Shown here: positions 824 to 8,218 of the stretch, in pieces | Position numbering within the stretch: position 1 is the first letter of the stretch | How the letters are laid out: each line of letters opens with the position of its first letter | DNA from: Neisseriaceae bacterium | Lineage (GTDB): Bacteria > Pseudomonadota > Gammaproteobacteria > Burkholderiales > Neisseriaceae | Length of the DNA stretch: 37,564 nt | Assembly: GCA_017553165.1 (NCBI GenBank) | Contig: JAFZMY010000106.1 | Coordinates: 1 to 37,564 of the forward strand | Direction of reading: 5' to 3' | The notes under the pieces: model-generated | Told to the model about the DNA's origin: nothing | The model's input: the letters and a program-made list of their open reading frames with translations, nothing else | Database searches by the model: none | Position numbers and translations under genes: made by a program

Positions 824-1633
824 CTATTTTCCCCTTTTTCTAATACCTTGTGCTGATTGAAGTTGTTGCTTTAATAATCTATCTGCTATACGAATATCTT
901 GATTTGTTGCAGCCTTGATTTCGCCATTGTTATTTAAAAATACTTTACCATCTTGTGGACGAATATTTCTTGTAAGCCATTGAGAATGTGGCGTTTCTAT
1001 TTGTGTATTTGTTTTTTTGTTTGTTGTATGTGCTCGACCACGTAAGTCTATACGACCACTTCTTTCTGCAGTATTAAATCTAACCGAATTGGTGTTGTAT
1101 TTTTTCGCAACATCTTCTGCCATTTGTTTTGTAGTTTTAGGAGCGTAATTTGTTGTAGTATTTGCAATCTTTTTGGTGTTATTTACAGTATTTACCGCAT
1201 TCGTAGTCTTTTTAGTGTTACTCACCGCTTTGGTAACTTTTGCAACGGCTTCCACCTTTTTCACTGTACCAATAGCAGAACCACCTGGAATTGCAGAAGT
1301 AGCACCTTCAATAGCACCTGCTTTTGCGACTTCCTTAACGCTTGCAGGTTCTCCGGTTTTAGCATAGCTTTCGCCATGTTTCATCCACATTCCAAAGGCA
1401 ATTGCACCCAATCCAATGGCAACAAGCGGTAAAAACTCGCCCTCTGTTTCCTGCATTTCTTGCTTGGACAGTTCCACCGCTTGTATTTTGTGGTTATTGT
1501 CTACATCAAATACTTTGCTGTTAAAGGCTTTTTTTGCCTGTACTGCATTGGGACGAGTTGTTACTTCTTTGGCAAAACCTGCTGATGATATAGCAATTGC
1601 AACTATTGTTGCTATAATTTTTTGTGCTTTCAT
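824..1633 (-). CDS. secreted or membrane-anchored polymorphic-toxin-like protein with a basic C-terminal domain of unknown fold
   Basis: Intact 269-aa ORF with a GAGGA RBS. It has a Sec-type signal peptide (MKAQKIIATIVAIAISSAGFA/KE) and a Gly/Ala-rich hydrophobic segment (LPLVAIGLGAIAFGMWM, then GAIEGATSAIPGGSAIG). A Lys/Thr/Asn/Ala low-complexity linker follows. The last ~95 aa form a basic domain (NSVRFNTAERSGRIDLRGRAHTTNKKTNTQIETPHSQW...). The N-terminus is duplicated at 1-57, and an immunity-type gene lies immediately downstream. That it is coding is near certain; the toxin function is inferred. Confidence 0.5.
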   Translation of the reverse strand: MKAQKIIATIVAIAISSAGFAKEVTTRPNAVQAKKAFNSKVFDVDNNHKIQAVELSKQEMQETEGEFLPLVAIGLGAIAFGMWMKHGESYAKTGEPASVKEVAKAGAIEGATSAIPGGSAIGTVKKVEAVAKVTKAVSNTKKTTNAVNTVNNTKKIANTTTNYAPKTTKQMAEDVAKKYNTNSVRFNTAERSGRIDLRGRAHTTNKKTNTQIETPHSQWLTRNIRPQDGKVFLNNNGEIKAATNQDIRIADRLLKQQLQSAQGIRKRGK

Positions 1634-3146: not shown

Positions 3147-4163
3147 TTAGGCGTAGTACGGCATAAGTTGTCCTACGCAATGCAATTTATTTGCCGCTTT
3201 CAGTAGATTCGCACAGATTGCTTTTAGCAAAAACTGACCTTCGCATTTTTTCAAGCCAAAGTAACTCGACCGTTTGCCGCCGAAAATGCGGTGTATTGTG
3301 CCGAATGTGCGTTCAACCACATAGCGAGTTTGCGTTAATTTTTTGTTGCGTTGTAGTTGAGCGTCCGTCAAAGGCGTACCTTTCTTCACCTTATCCATAA
3401 TTCCATTTTTCAAACCACGATTTTTTAAGTGATTGCGGTTCTCTTCACTACAATAACCCTTATCCGCATAAACCATTGTATTTTCAGGTAAATCATCTAA
3501 CAGCGGAGCAAAATTTTTGGTATCACTCTCGTTTGCAGGTGTGCCGTAGGCTTTACCCACAAAACCCTCCTCATCAACTATATTGTGCATTTTGAAACCC
3601 AACTTCCACTTACCATATTTCTTCTGCCAGCCAGCGTCTTGGTCTTTGCACAGCGTATATTCAACGGCGTTGCCGTCTTTATCTTCTTCAATGACTTTGT
3701 TATATTTACTTGCCGCCGTTTGAATAATGGTTGCGTCAATAATCGCCGTATCTGCATTTTTGACTTTCAAGCCATATTCTTCTAATTGACGATTGATTTC
3801 ATCTAACAATTTACTCAATAAACCATTATCTATCAAAAAGTTACGAAAACGCCCCAAAGTTGTTGCATCAGGAATTTCCATATCATCAAAACCACAAAAC
3901 AGCATAAAATCATTACGAACCGCCAAAGAATATTCCAACGCTTCGTCCGATAAAGAATGTCATTGACCTAATATAACCGCTTTCAACATAGCAATCGTAT
4001 CATAAGGCGGACGACCACCTTTGTCGTAAGAAACTTGCTTAACTTCTTGAACAATCAATAAAATCTTTTTCCAGTTAATCAGTATGTTAATCTTCAACAA
4101 AGGCGATTTCTGTGCATACCGCTCCATTTTGTCCTTAACCGTCTGCATAAAAAAACTGCTCAT
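3147..4163 (-). pseudogene. IS5-family transposase interrupted by one in-frame TGA (3960-3962)
   Basis: ORFs 3960..4163 and 3147..3938 are in the same frame. The junction reads ...AVILGQ*HSLSDEALEYSLAVRNDF.... In IS5/InsH-type transposases this motif is LLQQW(F/Y)NLSD, so the TGA replaces a conserved TGG Trp. The N-terminal part has the GRPPYD motif (DUF772-like). The C-terminal part is a DDE domain (IIDAT..., YADKGY..., ERTFG). Confidence 0.75.
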
Positions 4164-4241
4164 CTTTAATCCTACCGAAATTCGTAACTTATTGAATTAT
4201 AACAAGTTTGTGATTTTGTGTCAAGCAAATTATAAATAAAA

Positions 4242-4381
4242 TCAATAGGTTAGTAAATTAAACCAAAATGGTTGATGAAAAGTGAAAAAGGGGTTTTGCA
4301 GGGGGTTCATAAAGTCAATGGGTTAGTAAATTAAACCAAAATGGTTGATGAAAAGTGAAAAGGGGGTTTTGCAGGGGGTTC
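4242..4381. repeat. tandem duplication of the IS right end (2 x 67 bp, period 73 bp)
   Basis: 4242-4308 and 4315-4381 (TCAATRGGTTAGTAAATTAAACCAAAATGGTTGATGAAAAGTGAAAARGGGGTTTTGCAGGGGGTTC) differ at only 2 positions. Confidence 0.85.
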
Positions 4382-4488
4382 TTTAACCTATCGATAATCA
4401 CCGAGTGAAATTAAAATTTGCGAAATAATATTGACACAACCACGCAGGGTCGCCACTACGGAATAAATTTCTTTTGTTTTTAAAATAA

Positions 4489-4548
4489 GTTTTGCAGGGG
4501 TTTCTCAAAATGACAAATAAAATAAAAGTAGGTTTTGCAAAGGTTTCA
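4489..4548. repeat. two further solo right-end TIR copies in the same orientation
   Basis: GTTTTGCAGGGGTTTC (4489-4504) is the perfect reverse complement of the IS left TIR at 2980-2995. TTTTGCAAAGGTTTCA (4533-4548) is identical to the right end of the MITE at 10489-10504. Confidence 0.6.
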
Positions 4549-4560
4549 ATCTACAAATAA

Positions 4561-4587
4561 AAAGCCACGTTAGCGTAACGTGGCTTT
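4561..4587 (-). terminator. rho-independent terminator of the cco operon
   Basis: AAAGCCACGTTA-GCG-TAACGTGGCTTT forms a 12-bp stem. It lies 23 nt downstream of the ccoP stop and is followed on the minus strand by TTTTATTTG. Confidence 0.75.
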
Positions 4588-4609
4588 GAGTTTGTCAATT
4601 AAACTTAAA

Positions 4610-5929
4610 TTACTGTAAAGATACTTCTACACGGCGTGCTTCTGCTTCTGCACCGGCATCAGTACTTTCAGGTTTTTTAAGGTCAATTACGTCTTCTGGA
4701 ATGCCTAATTCAAGCAAAGTTTTTTGGACTGACATTGCACGCTGTTTTGCTAATTCAGCATTTTGTGCAGCATCGCCAGATGCGTCATGGAAACCAGAAA
4801 TTACAACTTTTTTACCTTCGGCAACACCTGCAACAATAGCTGCGAGTGATTCGGCGGCATCAGCAGATAAATCTTGGCTACCAGATGCAAAGTAGAATTT
4901 AACCACGCCATCATCACCTACAACAACGCTGTTTTCATCAGCAGCAGGAGTTGCTGCTGTATCCTCAGCCGGTGTAACAGCTGGTGCTGGGTCTTTGCTG
5001 TGGTCAGATAAGCCCCATACGTATGCAGTTAAGATACGTAATTTGGCAGTATCATCACCATCAACCAAGAAGTTTTCCCATTTGGGCATTTCATTGGTAT
5101 GACCTTGTCTAATGGTATTTATGATGTCTTGTTCACCAGCTCCCCATAACCAAACATTGTCGGTTAAGTTAGGTGCTAAACCTGTTAAACCTTTACCGTC
5201 ATCTTGGTGGCAAGTAAAACAGATTTGATCATAAATTAGCTTACCTTTAGCTACACGGTCTTCAATGGCTTTGCTACGGAATGCTTCATTTTCATTCAAA
5301 GACAGTACGTAATGAGCAACATTACGAACTTCGTCTTCTGGGAATGGTTCTAAACCACCGTATGCAGGCATGCTACCAATACGACCGTAACGAATGGTCT
5401 CTTCGATTTCTTCTGGAGAACCACCCCATAACCAATCGTTATCAGTCAAGTTAGGGAAACCAATCGCACCTTTTGCATCAGAGCCATGGCACTGAATACA
5501 GTAAGTGTTGAATAGGTTTTGACCGATAACTTTTGCTTCTGAATCTTTTGCAATTTCTTCAATAGATTTATTAGCAAATTTGTTATAAATCGGTTGATAT
5601 TGTGCTTTTGCTTCTGCTACTTCATTCTCATAACGATTGGCACTTGTCCAACCTTTGAGACCTTTGAATGATGAAAAGCCTGGATATAGAGTTAAATAAG
5701 CTATACCGAAAACAACGGTAATAATAAACAGATAGAACCACCAACGGGGTAGGGGATTGTTGTATTCCTCAATTCCGTCCCATTCGTGTCCCATTGTTTC
5801 AACCTTGTCGCCTGTTCTTTTGGTTTTGTTTTGAGAAACTAACAGCCAAACCAAACCAATGAAACTGGCGATCACGATCACTGCTGTATAGATAGTCCAG
5901 AAATTACTGGTGAAATCTGATGTATTCAT
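4610..5929 (-). CDS. ccoP: cbb3-type cytochrome c oxidase subunit III (dihaem CcoP) with a C-terminal OmpA-like domain
   Basis: 439 aa. It has an N-terminal TM helix, the PLPRWW motif and two haem c sites (CIQCH, CFTCH). An Ala/Pro/Thr linker follows. The C-terminal ~100 aa fit the OmpA_C pattern (VKFYFASGSQDL...VVISGFHDASGD..QNAELAKQRAMSV...LGIPEDVI...RRVEV). It lies in ccoN-O-Q-P order. Confidence 0.9.
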   Translation of the reverse strand: MNTSDFTSNFWTIYTAVIVIASFIGLVWLLVSQNKTKRTGDKVETMGHEWDGIEEYNNPLPRWWFYLFIITVVFGIAYLTLYPGFSSFKGLKGWTSANRYENEVAEAKAQYQPIYNKFANKSIEEIAKDSEAKVIGQNLFNTYCIQCHGSDAKGAIGFPNLTDNDWLWGGSPEEIEETIRYGRIGSMPAYGGLEPFPEDEVRNVAHYVLSLNENEAFRSKAIEDRVAKGKLIYDQICFTCHQDDGKGLTGLAPNLTDNVWLWGAGEQDIINTIRQGHTNEMPKWENFLVDGDDTAKLRILTAYVWGLSDHSKDPAPAVTPAEDTAATPAADENSVVVGDDGVVKFYFASGSQDLSADAAESLAAIVAGVAEGKKVVISGFHDASGDAAQNAELAKQRAMSVQKTLLELGIPEDVIDLKKPESTDAGAEAEARRVEVSLQ

Positions 5930-6132
5930 TTATTCGCTCCGTTTTCATGAGAGTCTGATTGCTTCTGACTCGATGTATTTGCAATAGGAGTATCATCGTC
6001 ATCGACAATACCGCGAGCAATTTGGTCATATTCTGCTTTTGCACCTTTGCGATAAGCAATAAGTACAAAGGCAATGAACGCACCAAAACAAACTACTGTA
6101 AAAAGAGTTCGAGCCAGATCAATCATAATCAC
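5926..6132 (-). CDS. ccoQ: cbb3-type cytochrome oxidase subunit CcoQ (FixQ)
   Basis: 68-aa single-TM protein lying between ccoO and ccoP. It has a 4-nt ATGA overlap with the ccoP start. Confidence 0.75.
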   Translation of the reverse strand: MIMIDLARTLFTVVCFGAFIAFVLIAYRKGAKAEYDQIARGIVDDDDTPIANTSSQKQSDSHENGANK

Positions 6133-6144
6133 TTATCTCTTGGG

Positions 6145-6768
6145 TTAGTTCGCTTGGTTAGTTTCATCAGCCAAAGCATGACCTAAACTTTGCAAGTAAG
6201 CAATCATCGCGTCTAATTCGGTTTTATTAGACATCAACTCTTGGGCTGCTGCAAAATCCGCCTCGGTATATGGAACACCAACGATTTTTAAGGTCTTCAT
6301 ATGGCGAACTGTTGCATCAATATTTACTGGATTGCGTTTAAGCCAAGGGAATGCTGGCATCACTGATTCAGGTACAACTGAACGTGGATCGTCCATGTGT
6401 TGTTCGTGCCAAGTGTCGGAATAACGACCACCAACACGTGCTAAATCAGGACCAGTACGTTTGGAGCCCCATTGGAATGGGTGATCATAAACAGACTCAC
6501 CACCGACAGAGTAATGACCATAGCGTTCGGTTTCTGCACGGAACGGACGAATCATTTGTGAGTGGCAGTTGTAGCAGCCTTCACGAATGTAAATGTCGCG
6601 ACCTGCTAATTCCAAAGCGTTGTATGGTTTTAAACCAGGTGCTGGTTCGGTTACAGATTTAGAACCGAATAATGGCACCACTTCGATAAGTAAGCCTACA
6701 CTGATTAACAGAAAAATGAAAATAATCAAGAATGCTAACTTTTCTTCTGCAAGTTTTTGTAGTTCCAT
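6145..6768 (-). CDS. ccoO: cbb3-type cytochrome c oxidase subunit II (monohaem CcoO)
   Basis: 207 aa with an N-terminal TM helix and the CYNCH haem motif. It also has conserved [10 protein letters not shown] and RPF..E..RYG blocks. Confidence 0.93.
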
Positions 6769-6787
6769 AATTTAAGCCCGCCTTTCA

Positions 6788-8218
6788 TTAATGTTGAGTT
6801 TGCGAAGCAGTTGGAATAGGAGCGTCAACACACTCACCTGCACCAATGGTTTTTAAGGTGTTAATTAACATAACCACCATACCAGACAGGTATAACAAAC
6901 CACCCAACATGCGGATAACGAAGAACCAATGACTTTGTTTAACAGACTCAATGAAAGAGTAAGTTAAAGTGCCGTCAGGGTTCAAATCACGCCACATTAA
7001 ACCTTGCATTACACCAGCAATCCACATGGAAGCAATGTATAACACAACGCCGATGGTGGCAATCCAGAAGTGTAATTCTACTAATTTGGTAGAGTACATT
7101 TCTTTGCGACCAAACAAGCGAGGAATTAAGTAGTACATAGACCCCATAGTTACAAAGCCAACCCAGCCTAATGCACCAGAGTGTACGTGACCCACGGTCC
7201 AGTCAGTGTAGTGGCTCAATGCGTTCACTGATTTAACAGACATCATTGGACCTTCAAAGGTACTCATACCGTAGAAAGACAAAGATACAATCAAGAATTT
7301 CAAAATAGGATCGGTACGCAGTTTATGCCATGCACCAGATAAGGTCATAATACCGTTAATCATACCACCCCAAGATGGAGCCAATAAAATCAAAGAGAAC
7401 ACCATGCCCAAAGATTGTGTCCAGTCAGGCAATGCGGTGTAGTGTAAGTGGTGAGGACCTGCCCACATATAAGTGAAAATCAAAGCCCAGAAGTGAACCA
7501 CTGATAAACGGTAAGAATAAACAGGACGACCTGCTTGTTTTGGCACGAAGTAGTACATCATACCCAAGAAGGCTGCGGTCAAGAAGAAACCTACAGCATT
7601 ATGACCATACCACCATTGAACCATGGCATCAATCGCACCTGCATATACAGGATAAGATGTGGTGAAATCAGATGGAACCGCAATGTTATTTACAATGTGT
7701 AACAGTGCTACTGCAAGAATAAATGCAGCGTAGAACCAGTTAGCCACATAAATGTGTTTTACCTTGCGGATTGCTAATGTACCGAAGAATACGATTGCAT
7801 AAGCCACCCAAACCACAGTTAATAACAAGTCTGCCCACCAAGGTAATTCGGCGTACTCTTTACCTTGTGTAATCCCTAATGGGTAACATATAGCGGCAGA
7901 AAGAATCACTAACTGGAAGCCCCAGAAAGTGAACATTGCCAACGGTCCTGCGAAGAGGCGTGTGTTACAAGTGCGTTGCACCACGTAATACGATGTTGCG
8001 AACAATGCACAACCGCCAAATGCAAAGATGACGGCATTAGTATGTAAAGGGCGTAGTCGTCCAAAATGAAACCACGGACCAATGTCCGTTAAGTTTAATG
8101 CTGGGAATGCAAGCTGAGCTGCAATCAGCACCCCAACCAACATGCCGACAATACCCCAAACTACGGTCATAACGGCGAACATCCGTATTACCTTGTAGTT
8201 GTAAGTTTGCGTTTCCAT
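6788..8218 (-). CDS. ccoN: cbb3-type cytochrome c oxidase subunit I (CcoN)
   Basis: 476-aa polytopic haem-copper oxidase subunit, with conserved His ligands in [19 protein letters not shown] and [13 protein letters not shown]. Confidence 0.95.

Follow-up and report, generated by a model that had tools for sequence, protein, structure and literature searches.

How does a protein of 269 residues come to carry, one after another, a Sec signal peptide, a string resembling the leader of a double-glycine bacteriocin, a Gly/Ala-rich hydrophobic core, a low-complexity spacer and a very basic C-terminal domain, and what would such a protein be for? The question is raised by a minus-strand open reading frame (ORF) at positions 824-1633 of contig JAFZMY010000106.1 from a Neisseriaceae bacterium (assembly GCA_017553165.1), a contig of 37,564 nucleotides (nt) that is called the window here. 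A sequence-only reading had described these five modules and proposed a toxin; all five are present in the ORF, with its 269 residues exactly as quoted. The answer reached below is that the protein is a polymorphic toxin, its toxicity being predicted, and it can be held with high confidence that the gene forms part of a polymorphic toxin/immunity cassette genetically tied to the outer-membrane barrel NapF and the secreted peptidase NapP. The toxin/immunity pair itself belongs to the known Ntox24/Imm53 type. The novelty lies in the delivery scaffold and in the connection of this scaffold with a route of the NapF/NapP (FapF/FapD-like) type, which is barely touched in the literature.

Constant and variable parts of the toxin

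A word-indexed search with the protein returned only eight relatives, all of them from metagenome-assembled genomes (MAGs) of Neisseriaceae or from ruminant metagenomes. Residues 1 to about 150 are 84-87% identical in five of these (P0002-P0006, alignment A1), whereas past the Lys/Thr/Asn-rich spacer the C-termini of the same five proteins and of P0008 are unrelated, and at least seven C-terminal types can be distinguished. Another relative, P0007, is 51% identical over its full length and has the same C-terminus as the window toxin. The boundary is equally visible in the DNA, where homology between the window and the locus L001 (82.5% over 732 nt) starts 226 nt 5' of the ATG, continues to about codon 168 and then ends, so that promoter and N-terminal module (N-module) make up a constant block and the C-terminal domain a cassette. 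The downstream gene varies with the C-terminus: it encodes an Imm53 protein in the window and also next to P0007 (locus L002), where the product is an orthologue 69% identical to that of the window, and unrelated ORFs take its place in L001, L006, L010, L014 and L025. With a conserved N-terminus, a swapped C-terminus, co-varying downstream genes and an Imm53 gene immediately next, the earlier proposal of a toxin is borne out.

The C-terminal domain proved to be widespread once profiles were used. Searched on its own by the word-indexed method it gave no matches, its own cluster included; the exhaustive profile search gave 235 matches at E<=1e-3, and a homologous domain of about 91 residues lies at the extreme C-terminus of about 108 among the representatives listed. 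The same domain caps RHS proteins (P0026, P0047, P0055), an RHS/TcdB-type protein and a DUF637/PT-VENN (CdiA-type) fragment (P0016). One of the proteins recovered with the window profile, P0112, passes the threshold of the Pfam Ntox24 model (PF15529) at 50.7 bits and is 31% identical to the window domain (E 2e-11), with DLxG..H, ETPH and QDIR shared, and it is by this bridge that the window domain is placed in the Ntox24 lineage. The Pfam model misses most relatives, none of the five tested being found at E<=0.01 and two of ten at E<=10.

The domain has an isoelectric point of 11.0, and the family consensus is K...EMA..L....GKNSV.F.T....GHIDL.GK.HFDK.T...IPTPHVQ......GP.NG......TRPATKQDIR.AR.L. 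Its core, IDLxGxxH followed by TPH and DIR, includes nine residues (D196, L197, G199, H202, T214, P215, H216, D246 and R248) that are 98-100% conserved in 100 relatives of the C-terminal domain. Both H202 (minus strand, nt 1028-1030) and H216 (nt 986-988) reach 98%, and an aromatic residue (F/Y) occupies position 204 in 82% of the sequences. The two histidines flagged by the sequence-only reading, in RIDLRGRAH (194-202) and TPH (214-216), are the family's invariant ones, although the spacing of 13 residues given for them is correct only as the distance separating the two histidines, since 11 residues lie between RAH and TPH. An AlphaFold2 (AF2) model of the domain has a mean confidence (pLDDT) of 90.6 and consists of a helix, seven strands and a further helix, and is hence not purely beta.

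Ntox24 was described by Zhang et al. 2012 as a predicted metal-independent endoribonuclease with conserved Y, H and H, a mostly beta fold, and Imm50 and Imm53 as immunity partners (PMC3482391). The window domain is predicted to be, probably, a metal-independent ribonuclease (RNase) that uses H202 and H216. The nuclease-like character assigned to it earlier is in this way upheld at the level of lineage, Ntox24 being a predicted RNase family, and of the two conserved histidines, with nuclease activity itself remaining a prediction. Because the Ntox24-Imm53 pairing is tabulated in the same survey (PMC3482391), the gene at 97-759 is taken as the cognate immunity gene; it encodes 220 residues from a TTG start or 215 from the ATG at 744.

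The Ntox24/Imm53 modules of CdiA, Rhs and type VII secretion system (T7SS) toxins (PMC3482391) share with the window toxin the domain lineage, the pair of histidines, a core that is mostly beta as modelled, the immunity family and the position at the extreme C-terminus after a junction. The carrier is different: here the domain is borne by a 168-residue scaffold of Sec signal, leader and helix, and not by a type V (T5SS), type VI (T6SS) or T7SS protein or a MuF protein.

The N-module family, its leader-like motif and the genes beside it

The constant part of the toxin has its own family. About 45 small proteins (100-220 residues) match profile positions ~1-150 in the exhaustive search, all of them with a Sec-type signal, and for this family there is no curated model in Pfam or NCBIfam. 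The order of elements is a Sec signal, a V/I-F motif, a leader motif, a Gly/Ala-rich hydrophobic helix, the motif H..SY..TG.[P/W]AS and further Gly-rich sequence. In the alignment of 39 members the mean column identity is 18%, and F42, M60, T63 and G65 are invariant; together with the conservation of the C-terminal core in 100 relatives, this argues that the modules did not come about by chance. The signal peptide has a KxxK n-region, a hydrophobic core and G-F-A at -3 to -1, and its Ala21 is kept in at least 90% of the 39 relatives (alignment A7). By inspection of the sequence it has no lipobox, and a lipoprotein identity was rejected for that reason. A PT-TG pre-toxin domain was likewise rejected, as there was no Pfam match at E<=1, and matches of the toxin to DUF3842 (E 0.17) and Cas12f2 (E 0.15) were taken as low-complexity noise; its sequence found nothing in the PDB at E<=10.

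The leader motif of the family reads [A/V/L]x[E/A][L/M][S/T]xx[E/Q]M[K/Q]ET[E/Q]G[E/A][F/W/L][L/I/A]P. If G65 is placed at -2 of a putative cleavage site, T63 falls at -4, M60 at -7, E59 at -8, L55 at -12 and A52 at -15. The sequence-only reading had regarded this string as a mimic of a double-glycine leader, lying inside the protein some 40 residues after the signal peptide. The gap is in fact 32 residues past the predicted signal cleavage site. The resemblance goes further than mimicry, since the register is canonical, the motif is the most conserved part of the family and genes for C39 peptidases are nearly always adjacent, and the motif is internal only until the Sec signal has been removed. 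Signal removal would turn it into the end of a 45-residue N-terminal pro-peptide, so that the protein, read from its sequence, appears to be a pre-pro-toxin. In P0058, P0013, P0117 and an ORF of L011 (9923-10360) the N-terminal 25-45 residues, covering the signal peptide and the beginning of the pro-region, weakly match the NCBIfam model NF047414 ("His-rich protein BRANT"; at best E 4e-5 and 24.6 bits, with a cut-off of 44); the same pre-pro leader may be used by BRANT as a further cargo.

The hydrophobic part after the motif had been compared with class II bacteriocin cores and glycine-zipper toxins. Here TIGR03949 (class IIb bacteriocin leader and core) is the NCBIfam model that recurs most among the family, in 9 of the 39 members, but every match is sub-threshold (best E 0.014; E 0.19 for window residues 53-80). 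The first helix, LPLVAIGLGAIAFGMWM (residues 68-84), has a mean Kyte-Doolittle hydropathy of 1.69 in a 19-residue window, equal to that of the signal peptide, and contains only two isolated small-xxx-small pairs (A72/G76 and A77/G81). A glycine zipper is found instead in GAIEGATSAIPGGSAIG (residues 106-122), with a five-step small-xxx-small ladder of G106, G110, A114, G118 and G122, the family conserving Gly-richness rather than the exact register. The spacer that follows (residues 123-168) contains 12 T, 9 K, 7 V, 7 N and 6 A.

Double-glycine class II bacteriocins and microcins share with these proteins the register, with Gly at -2, Glu at -8 and hydrophobic residues at -4, -7, -12 and -15, as well as a Gly/Ala-rich core and, by prediction, C39 processing. 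In contrast to bacteriocins exported by peptidase-containing ATP-binding cassette (ABC) transporters (PCATs), a Sec signal precedes the leader here, Gly never occurs at -1, which is Glu or Ala, the secreted peptidase is separate from any ABC protein, a small barrel stands in place of TolC, and the product would be a chain of 203 residues with a predicted enzymatic domain.

Genomes and metagenomes were scanned for loci with a motif taken from the narrower alignment A4, the broad alignment A3 having no sufficiently conserved stretch. Of the 20 loci found, 19 encode both a secreted C39 peptidase and a barrel of the NapF kind no further than about 3 kb from the N-module gene; at the exception, L005, which is identical to L001, the contig stops 742 nt past the toxin gene. 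The hosts include rumen Neisseriaceae, Conchiformibius kuhniae, Neisseria flavescens, Kingella and Desulfobacterales MAGs. At most loci no candidate cargo other than the N-module proteins is encoded between napF and napP, and the association spans beta-, gamma- and deltaproteobacterial loci and a plasmid. The L002 locus, which encodes P0007, has the order toxin, Imm53, a 293-residue outer-membrane barrel ending in Phe and a 212-residue signal-peptide protein with a Peptidase_C39 domain (PF03412, 5.8e-27). The barrel is the orthologue of NapF (54% identity, 9e-109) and the peptidase that of NapP (61% identity, 3e-89). The C39 proteins, of about 212 residues, have N-terminal signal peptides and no ABC domains, retain the catalytic motifs Q...SCGAAS, HFSV and DPS (Gln/Cys/His/Asp) and align in their C39 domain with the protease domains of LahT and PCAT1; the best NCBIfam match is C39_FapD (9.6e-30), followed by the pilus protein FilB. 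A profile search of the PDB with the barrel ranked FapF structures first (5o67, E 3.2e-4), where a single-sequence search of the PDB found nothing relevant.

The same layout recurs at further loci. In Wielerella bovis three cargo-plus-immunity cassettes, with truncated barrel fragments between them, form an array that closes with an intact barrel and peptidase. On plasmid p12SAAs474 (135 kb) of Acinetobacter sp. SAAs474 (L028, 5073-8153) a barrel, a cargo gene, two small ORFs and a "C39 family peptidase" adjoin IS3 transposase genes, and this occurrence on a gammaproteobacterial plasmid indicates that the system is mobile and extends beyond the Neisseriaceae.

Two published systems come closest to this arrangement. 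The gonococcal nap island, described in 2025, comprises NapF (a FapF-like channel), NapP (a C39 protein with a signal peptide) and the short peptides NapA, NapB and NapC with assigned GG sites, and was linked to autolysis (PMC11798529). The long NapB of N. lactamica shown there, which reads MKKQITAAMMLSMITPAMANGLDNQAFEDQVFHTRADAPMQLAELSQKEMKETEGEW... (S2 Fig, PMC11798529), is a member of the N-module family, window residues 35-69 being 46% identical to it by BLASTP (E 3e-9); no cleavage site was placed in it (PMC11798529). The architecture that had seemed unfamiliar therefore has a partial published precedent in long NapB with NapF and NapP. What is shared are the barrel and peptidase orthologues at L002, the napF fragment in the window and the N-module match to long NapB. 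The nap cargo, however, is described as short cationic peptides cut at GG, with no Sec step, whereas the cargo in the window is a 269-residue polymorphic toxin with a predicted enzyme domain, a Sec signal, a G-E/A site and a cytoplasmic immunity protein. Gonococcal NapB would seem to be what is left of an N-module protein after truncation at its N-terminus.

In Pseudomonas, secretion of Sec-exported amyloid subunits through FapF depends on the catalytic Cys of FapD, a periplasmic C39 protease, and the site at which FapD cuts its substrates is not known (PMC5557850). The same logic of a Sec-exported unfolded substrate, a stand-alone periplasmic C39 protease and a dedicated outer-membrane barrel would apply to both systems. 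The differences lie in the cargo, amyloid subunits there and a toxin with an immunity gene here; in the NapF-like barrels, which have about 270 mature residues and are without the long periplasmic coiled coil reported for all FapF homologues; in the NapP-like peptidase, which scores 103 bits against a FapD equivalog cut-off of 330; and in the target, as the N-module family offers a conserved candidate site where that of FapD is not known. No paper tying the NapF/NapP machinery to polymorphic toxins or describing the leader motif was found in the literature searched, including searches for FapF/FapD-like toxins, PF15529 and PF15580.

Proposed route of export and competing readings

The route that accommodates most of these observations is one in which the toxin is carried by Sec, matured by a C39 peptidase and released through NapF with an RNase as payload, and a probability of roughly 0.6 is assigned to this mechanism in full. 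The Sec signal (residues 1-21) would carry the unfolded chain to the periplasm and be removed at AGFA/KE, as its sequence suggests. In the periplasm a secreted stand-alone peptidase of the NapP/FapD type may cut after G65-E66, in front of F67, a step suggested by the motif register and the gene neighbourhood, the last 15 residues of the 45-residue pro-peptide acting as a periplasmic version of the double-glycine leader. The mature chain of 203 residues, largely unfolded, would then leave through the small NapF barrel by analogy with FapF; such an unfolded passage is consistent with the low-confidence model of the N-module and with the low-complexity linker. It would be made up of the Gly/Ala-rich helical module, the flexible Lys/Thr/Asn linker and the toxin domain of 100 residues. 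The conserved module at 67-122, common to all cargo, would be the obvious part to deal with a receptor or the membrane of the target cell, which is speculative; in the cytoplasm of that cell the Ntox24 domain is predicted to act as an RNase via H202 and H216. In kin cells the cytoplasmic tandem Imm53 protein would neutralise the toxin, as the pairing of the families suggests. Comparison of the loci shows that new pairs of C-terminal domain and immunity gene are swapped in by recombination, for which the promoter and N-module block and the napF 5' fragments may supply homology.

Several findings weigh against this route. Characterised C39 peptidases cut after GG, GA or GS. Position -1 of the putative site is E in 37, A in 17, K in 2 and S in 1 of 57 sequences and never Gly, and as it is Glu in the window, a cut after Gly-Glu would be without precedent. 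The residues past the site (two hydrophobic positions and then Pro at +3) are also conserved, unlike those of classical leaders, which could mean that the motif serves recognition and not cleavage. The segment 67-84 equals the signal peptide in hydrophobicity, has basic residues after it and could act as a stop-transfer sequence, with the C-terminal domain remaining in the cytoplasm. The AF2 model of the N-module has low confidence (pLDDT 47.6) and is uninformative, its helices at 68-93 and 99-113 having been used solely as rough helix positions. The export competence of this genome is also in question, as no intact napF or napP is present in the window, only a napF fragment of 131 residues. 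In the sole experimental paper on Nap, synthetic Nap peptides did not kill competitors, the roles of NapP and NapF are a model, and the crossing of the inner membrane is left unexplained (PMC11798529).

Further points concern the payload. The Ntox24 match of the window toxin itself (18.0 bits, E 0.0037, residues 176-238) lies below the Pfam cut-off of 24, and no biochemically characterised Ntox24 protein was found in the literature searched. A fold search of the PDB and BFVD with the model of the C-terminal domain gave no match at E<=0.001, the best being MRP1/MRP2 (E 0.02, template modelling score 0.32, non-significant), with a PC4-like protein and SSB among the others, and structural support is therefore neither for nor against a known RNase fold. 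The profile and structure searches that had been proposed for this domain have thus led to the Ntox24 lineage, through P0112, but the confident model matches no solved fold; as modelled, the fold is unrepresented among solved structures at present.

Foremost among the alternatives, and unlikely, is a toxin anchored in the inner membrane and directed at the producer itself, for programmed death or autolysis: once the signal is cleaved, residues 67-84 would act as a stop-transfer segment with the N-terminus on its outer side, the basic Ntox24 domain would sit in the cytoplasm of the producer, held in check by Imm53, and the periplasmic C39 peptidase would only trim or sense the pro-peptide, for example in signal release or toxin activation. 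The hydropathy of residues 66-84 (1.69, equal to that of the signal peptide) with positive charges after it, the position of the putative cut exactly at the periplasmic edge of the segment, the absence of a signal peptide from Imm53 and the published tie of the nap island to autolysis and not to competition (PMC11798529) all suit such a protein. An outer-membrane channel, however, would be needless for a retained protein and stands beside the cargo in 19 of 20 loci. Moreover, the pattern of variation of the C-terminal domain and the immunity gene is that of exported inter-bacterial toxins, the domain is found at the tips of RHS and CdiA-type proteins, and the orphan immunity gene at 2243-2857 makes sense as a defence against the toxins of neighbours. 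Hydrophobicity need not retain the chain either, as Sec does translocate the Gly/Ala-rich helices found in bacteriocins that depend on it.

Still less probable is a soluble toxin of the Sec/type II secretion system (T2SS) kind, like MafB of Neisseria, in which the N-terminal region would serve surface anchoring or receptor binding, the likeness to a leader would be coincidental or structural, and NapF and NapP would handle other cargo. MafB proteins are also polymorphic toxins with a Sec signal, in which the N-terminal part is conserved and the C-terminal part varies, and they too have immunity genes and orphan cassettes; lineage-specific domains such as MafB-N are described after the signal peptide of T2SS-type toxins by Zhang et al. 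2012, and the lack of Gly at -1 and the uniformly sub-threshold bacteriocin matches fit this reading. The window toxin is, however, much smaller and its family is associated with NapF and NapP. A MafB identity was rejected, since there is no DUF1020/MafB-N match in Pfam at E<=1 and no lipobox-bearing mafA-like ORF beside the toxin in the ORF list. The invariant M, T and G also sit at exactly the positions of a leader, no other candidate cargo is present between napF and napP at most loci, and the NapF/NapP association holds across three proteobacterial classes and a plasmid.

About as improbable as the MafB-like reading is the idea that the Gly/Ala-rich core kills as a membrane-permeabilising bacteriocin, with the C-terminal domain as an accessory that binds nucleic acids or a receptor. 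In its favour are the many family members that end soon past the core and have, next to them, small multi-pass membrane proteins of the kind that confers immunity to pore formers, the non-significant fold matches to single-strand nucleic-acid binders and the fact that the RNase activity of Ntox24 is a prediction. Against it stand the terminal toxin slot that the domain fills in RHS, CdiA-type and TcdB proteins, a cytoplasmic immunity partner from an Ntox24-tied family, invariant polar residues (D196, H202, H216, D246, R248) typical of a catalytic site and a downstream gene that changes along with the domain.

The cassette array and its relatives

The toxin gene is one cassette of an array (Table 1). 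In minus-strand order the window contains an IS5-like transposase, an orphan Imm53 gene, napF', a T16 tract, the conserved block of 226 nt, the toxin, a hairpin, the Imm53 gene and the start of a second toxin gene. The second gene begins 40 nt after the Imm53 stop and runs off the end of the contig; as the window is the whole contig, the assembly evidently broke inside the repeated N-module and the array continues past it. A sister contig (L004) stops 10 nt after its own Imm53 copy, within about 90 nt of the same point.

Table 1. Features of the toxin array in the window, listed along the minus strand (coordinates in nt of the window)
Feature	Position	Strand	Remarks
IS5-like DDE transposase, two ORFs (67 and 263 residues)	3147-4163	minus	directly adjoins the orphan Imm53 gene
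Orphan tandem Imm53, 204 residues	2243-2857	minus	Pfam Imm53 2e-28; no toxin gene upstream
Truncated napF', 131 residues of ~293	1825-2220	minus	signal peptide and first ~110 residues of a NapF/FapF-like channel
T16 tract of the coding strand (16 A on the other strand)	1797-1812	minus	between the napF' stop and the conserved block upstream of the toxin
Promoter-like site	1657-1684	minus	consensus scan, 9/12 matches, no better than shuffled background
Ribosome-binding site GAGGA	1641-1645	minus	7 nt 5' of the toxin ATG
Toxin ORF (putative pre-pro-toxin)	824-1633	minus	269 residues; 8 close homologues; conserved N-terminus and swapped C-terminus
Sec signal peptide MKAQKIIATIVAIAISSAGFA, followed by KE; residues 1-21	1571-1633	minus	predicted cleavage AGFA/KE, read from sequence
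Pro-region, residues 22-66	1436-1570	minus	ends with the leader-like motif; predicted C39 cut after E66
Leader-like motif ELSKQEMQETEGE, residues 54-66	1436-1474	minus	position from sequence
Conserved mature N-module, residues 67-122	1268-1435	minus	hydrophobic Gly/Ala helix 67-84, H..SY..TG.PAS motif, glycine-zipper ladder 106-122; alignments A3 and A7
Low-complexity spacer, residues 123-168	1130-1267	minus	Lys/Thr/Asn/Val/Ala; ends at the constant/variable recombination junction
C-terminal toxin domain, residues 169-269	827-1129	minus	divergent Ntox24, predicted RNase
GC-rich hairpin and T-run	798-814	minus	terminator-like; in the 64-nt gap between toxin stop and immunity start
Cognate immunity gene, tandem Imm53	97-759	minus	Pfam Imm53 2.8e-17 in two stretches; no signal peptide
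Start of second toxin gene, first 19 codons MKAQKIIAMIVAIAISSAG	1-57	minus	53/57 nt identical to the start of the first toxin gene

The product of the orphan Imm53 gene is 32% identical to the cognate protein, and a search for a toxin remnant between this gene and the insertion sequence (IS) element of the window found none. The napF' fragment aligns by tblastn solely with residues 11-138 of the 293-residue barrel of L002 (54% identity). Similar 5' fragments of barrel genes (125-143 residues) recur between cassettes in Wielerella bovis (L025, 8427-8852 and 10001-10387), in L019 (7749-7964) and at P0132; such fragments could be scars of recombination, providing homology for the exchange of cassettes, or might perhaps function as short proteins. 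The NapF of N. gonorrhoeae FA1090 is likewise a short allele. Homopolymer tracts near promoters, such as the T16 run would be, drive phase variation in Neisseriaceae, and the hairpin between toxin and immunity gene may attenuate read-through or set the ratio of the two transcripts. The remainder of the window is ordinary chromosome, with genes for a cbb3 oxidase, TamA/TamB, Lnt, LigA, ZipA and DnaG. The oxidase subunit CcoP (4610-5929, minus strand) combines FixP_N and two cytochrome c domains with a C-terminal OmpA-family peptidoglycan-binding domain, joined via an Ala/Pro-rich linker, which is an unusual fusion.

Among the relatives, the gonococcus is of particular interest. In N. gonorrhoeae the cargo gene adjoins the long napF allele, and napP lies at a separate locus. 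The sequence NZ_CP119142, filed in PLSDB as a "plasmid" of 2.17 Mb, is a mislabelled and almost unannotated chromosome; at 4017-7073 of this locus (L027) the long napF allele (288 residues) is followed by an unannotated N-module protein of 179 residues with a different toxin domain (C-terminus FPHYHRR...GQGIGRHRPWE) and an immunity-like ORF, and the locus also holds an orphan ...SNWRVQDKGHFHLWKR fragment with an immunity-like ORF of its own. By its sequence, N. gonorrhoeae thus appears to retain a full-length toxin of the N-module family. The motif scans also found the nap-island loci L011 and L021, and that of N. flavescens (L011) encodes an N-module protein of 145 residues.

Other loci contain cargo of different kinds. 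The napF...napP locus L015 contains, at 3846-4094, a NapR-like ORF of 82 residues, MNIKNEIVDLIFKKIDGG followed by QYSS..., which starts with a GG leader of the classical kind and lacks a Sec signal; its product may represent another type of substrate or else a regulator, the role suggested in the nap paper. The Desulfobacterales MAGs have duplicated N-module proteins of about 147 residues ending in ...FNPDNY (L007, 184-1298 and 5586-6705; L009, 9866-12295), each gene being followed by one for a multi-pass membrane protein of 190-198 residues, which fits a pore-forming bacteriocin with membrane immunity on the same export scaffold.

The catalogued routes of polymorphic toxins include T5SS, T6SS, T7SS, Rhs/Tc and MafB-type Sec export, and a combination of Sec, a periplasmic C39 peptidase and a FapF-like barrel is absent from the catalogue. 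There is about an even chance that the N-module marks an unrecognised and widespread pathway of this kind, in which a Sec signal and a periplasmic ELSxxEMxETxG[E/A] leader, maturation by C39 and release through a FapF-like barrel would provide one scaffold for cargo ranging from Gly-rich pore-forming peptides to enzymatic polymorphic toxins accompanied by immunity genes in beta-, gamma- and deltaproteobacteria and on plasmids. The nap autolysis island would then be a decayed bacteriocin/toxin locus whose cargo and leader were mis-assigned, with N. gonorrhoeae keeping an unannotated full-length toxin by the long napF. For a first biochemical characterisation the Ntox24 subfamily, whose model is confident, offers a clean target, and leader, peptidase and barrel could serve as a compact secretion device for Gram-negative hosts. 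If the proposal is correct, the conserved candidate site makes the specificity of periplasmic C39 proteases directly testable, and the Sec step would explain the crossing of the inner membrane that the Nap model left open. It would also suggest that N. gonorrhoeae, N. flavescens, Kingella, Conchiformibius and Wielerella engage in inter-bacterial competition via these loci.

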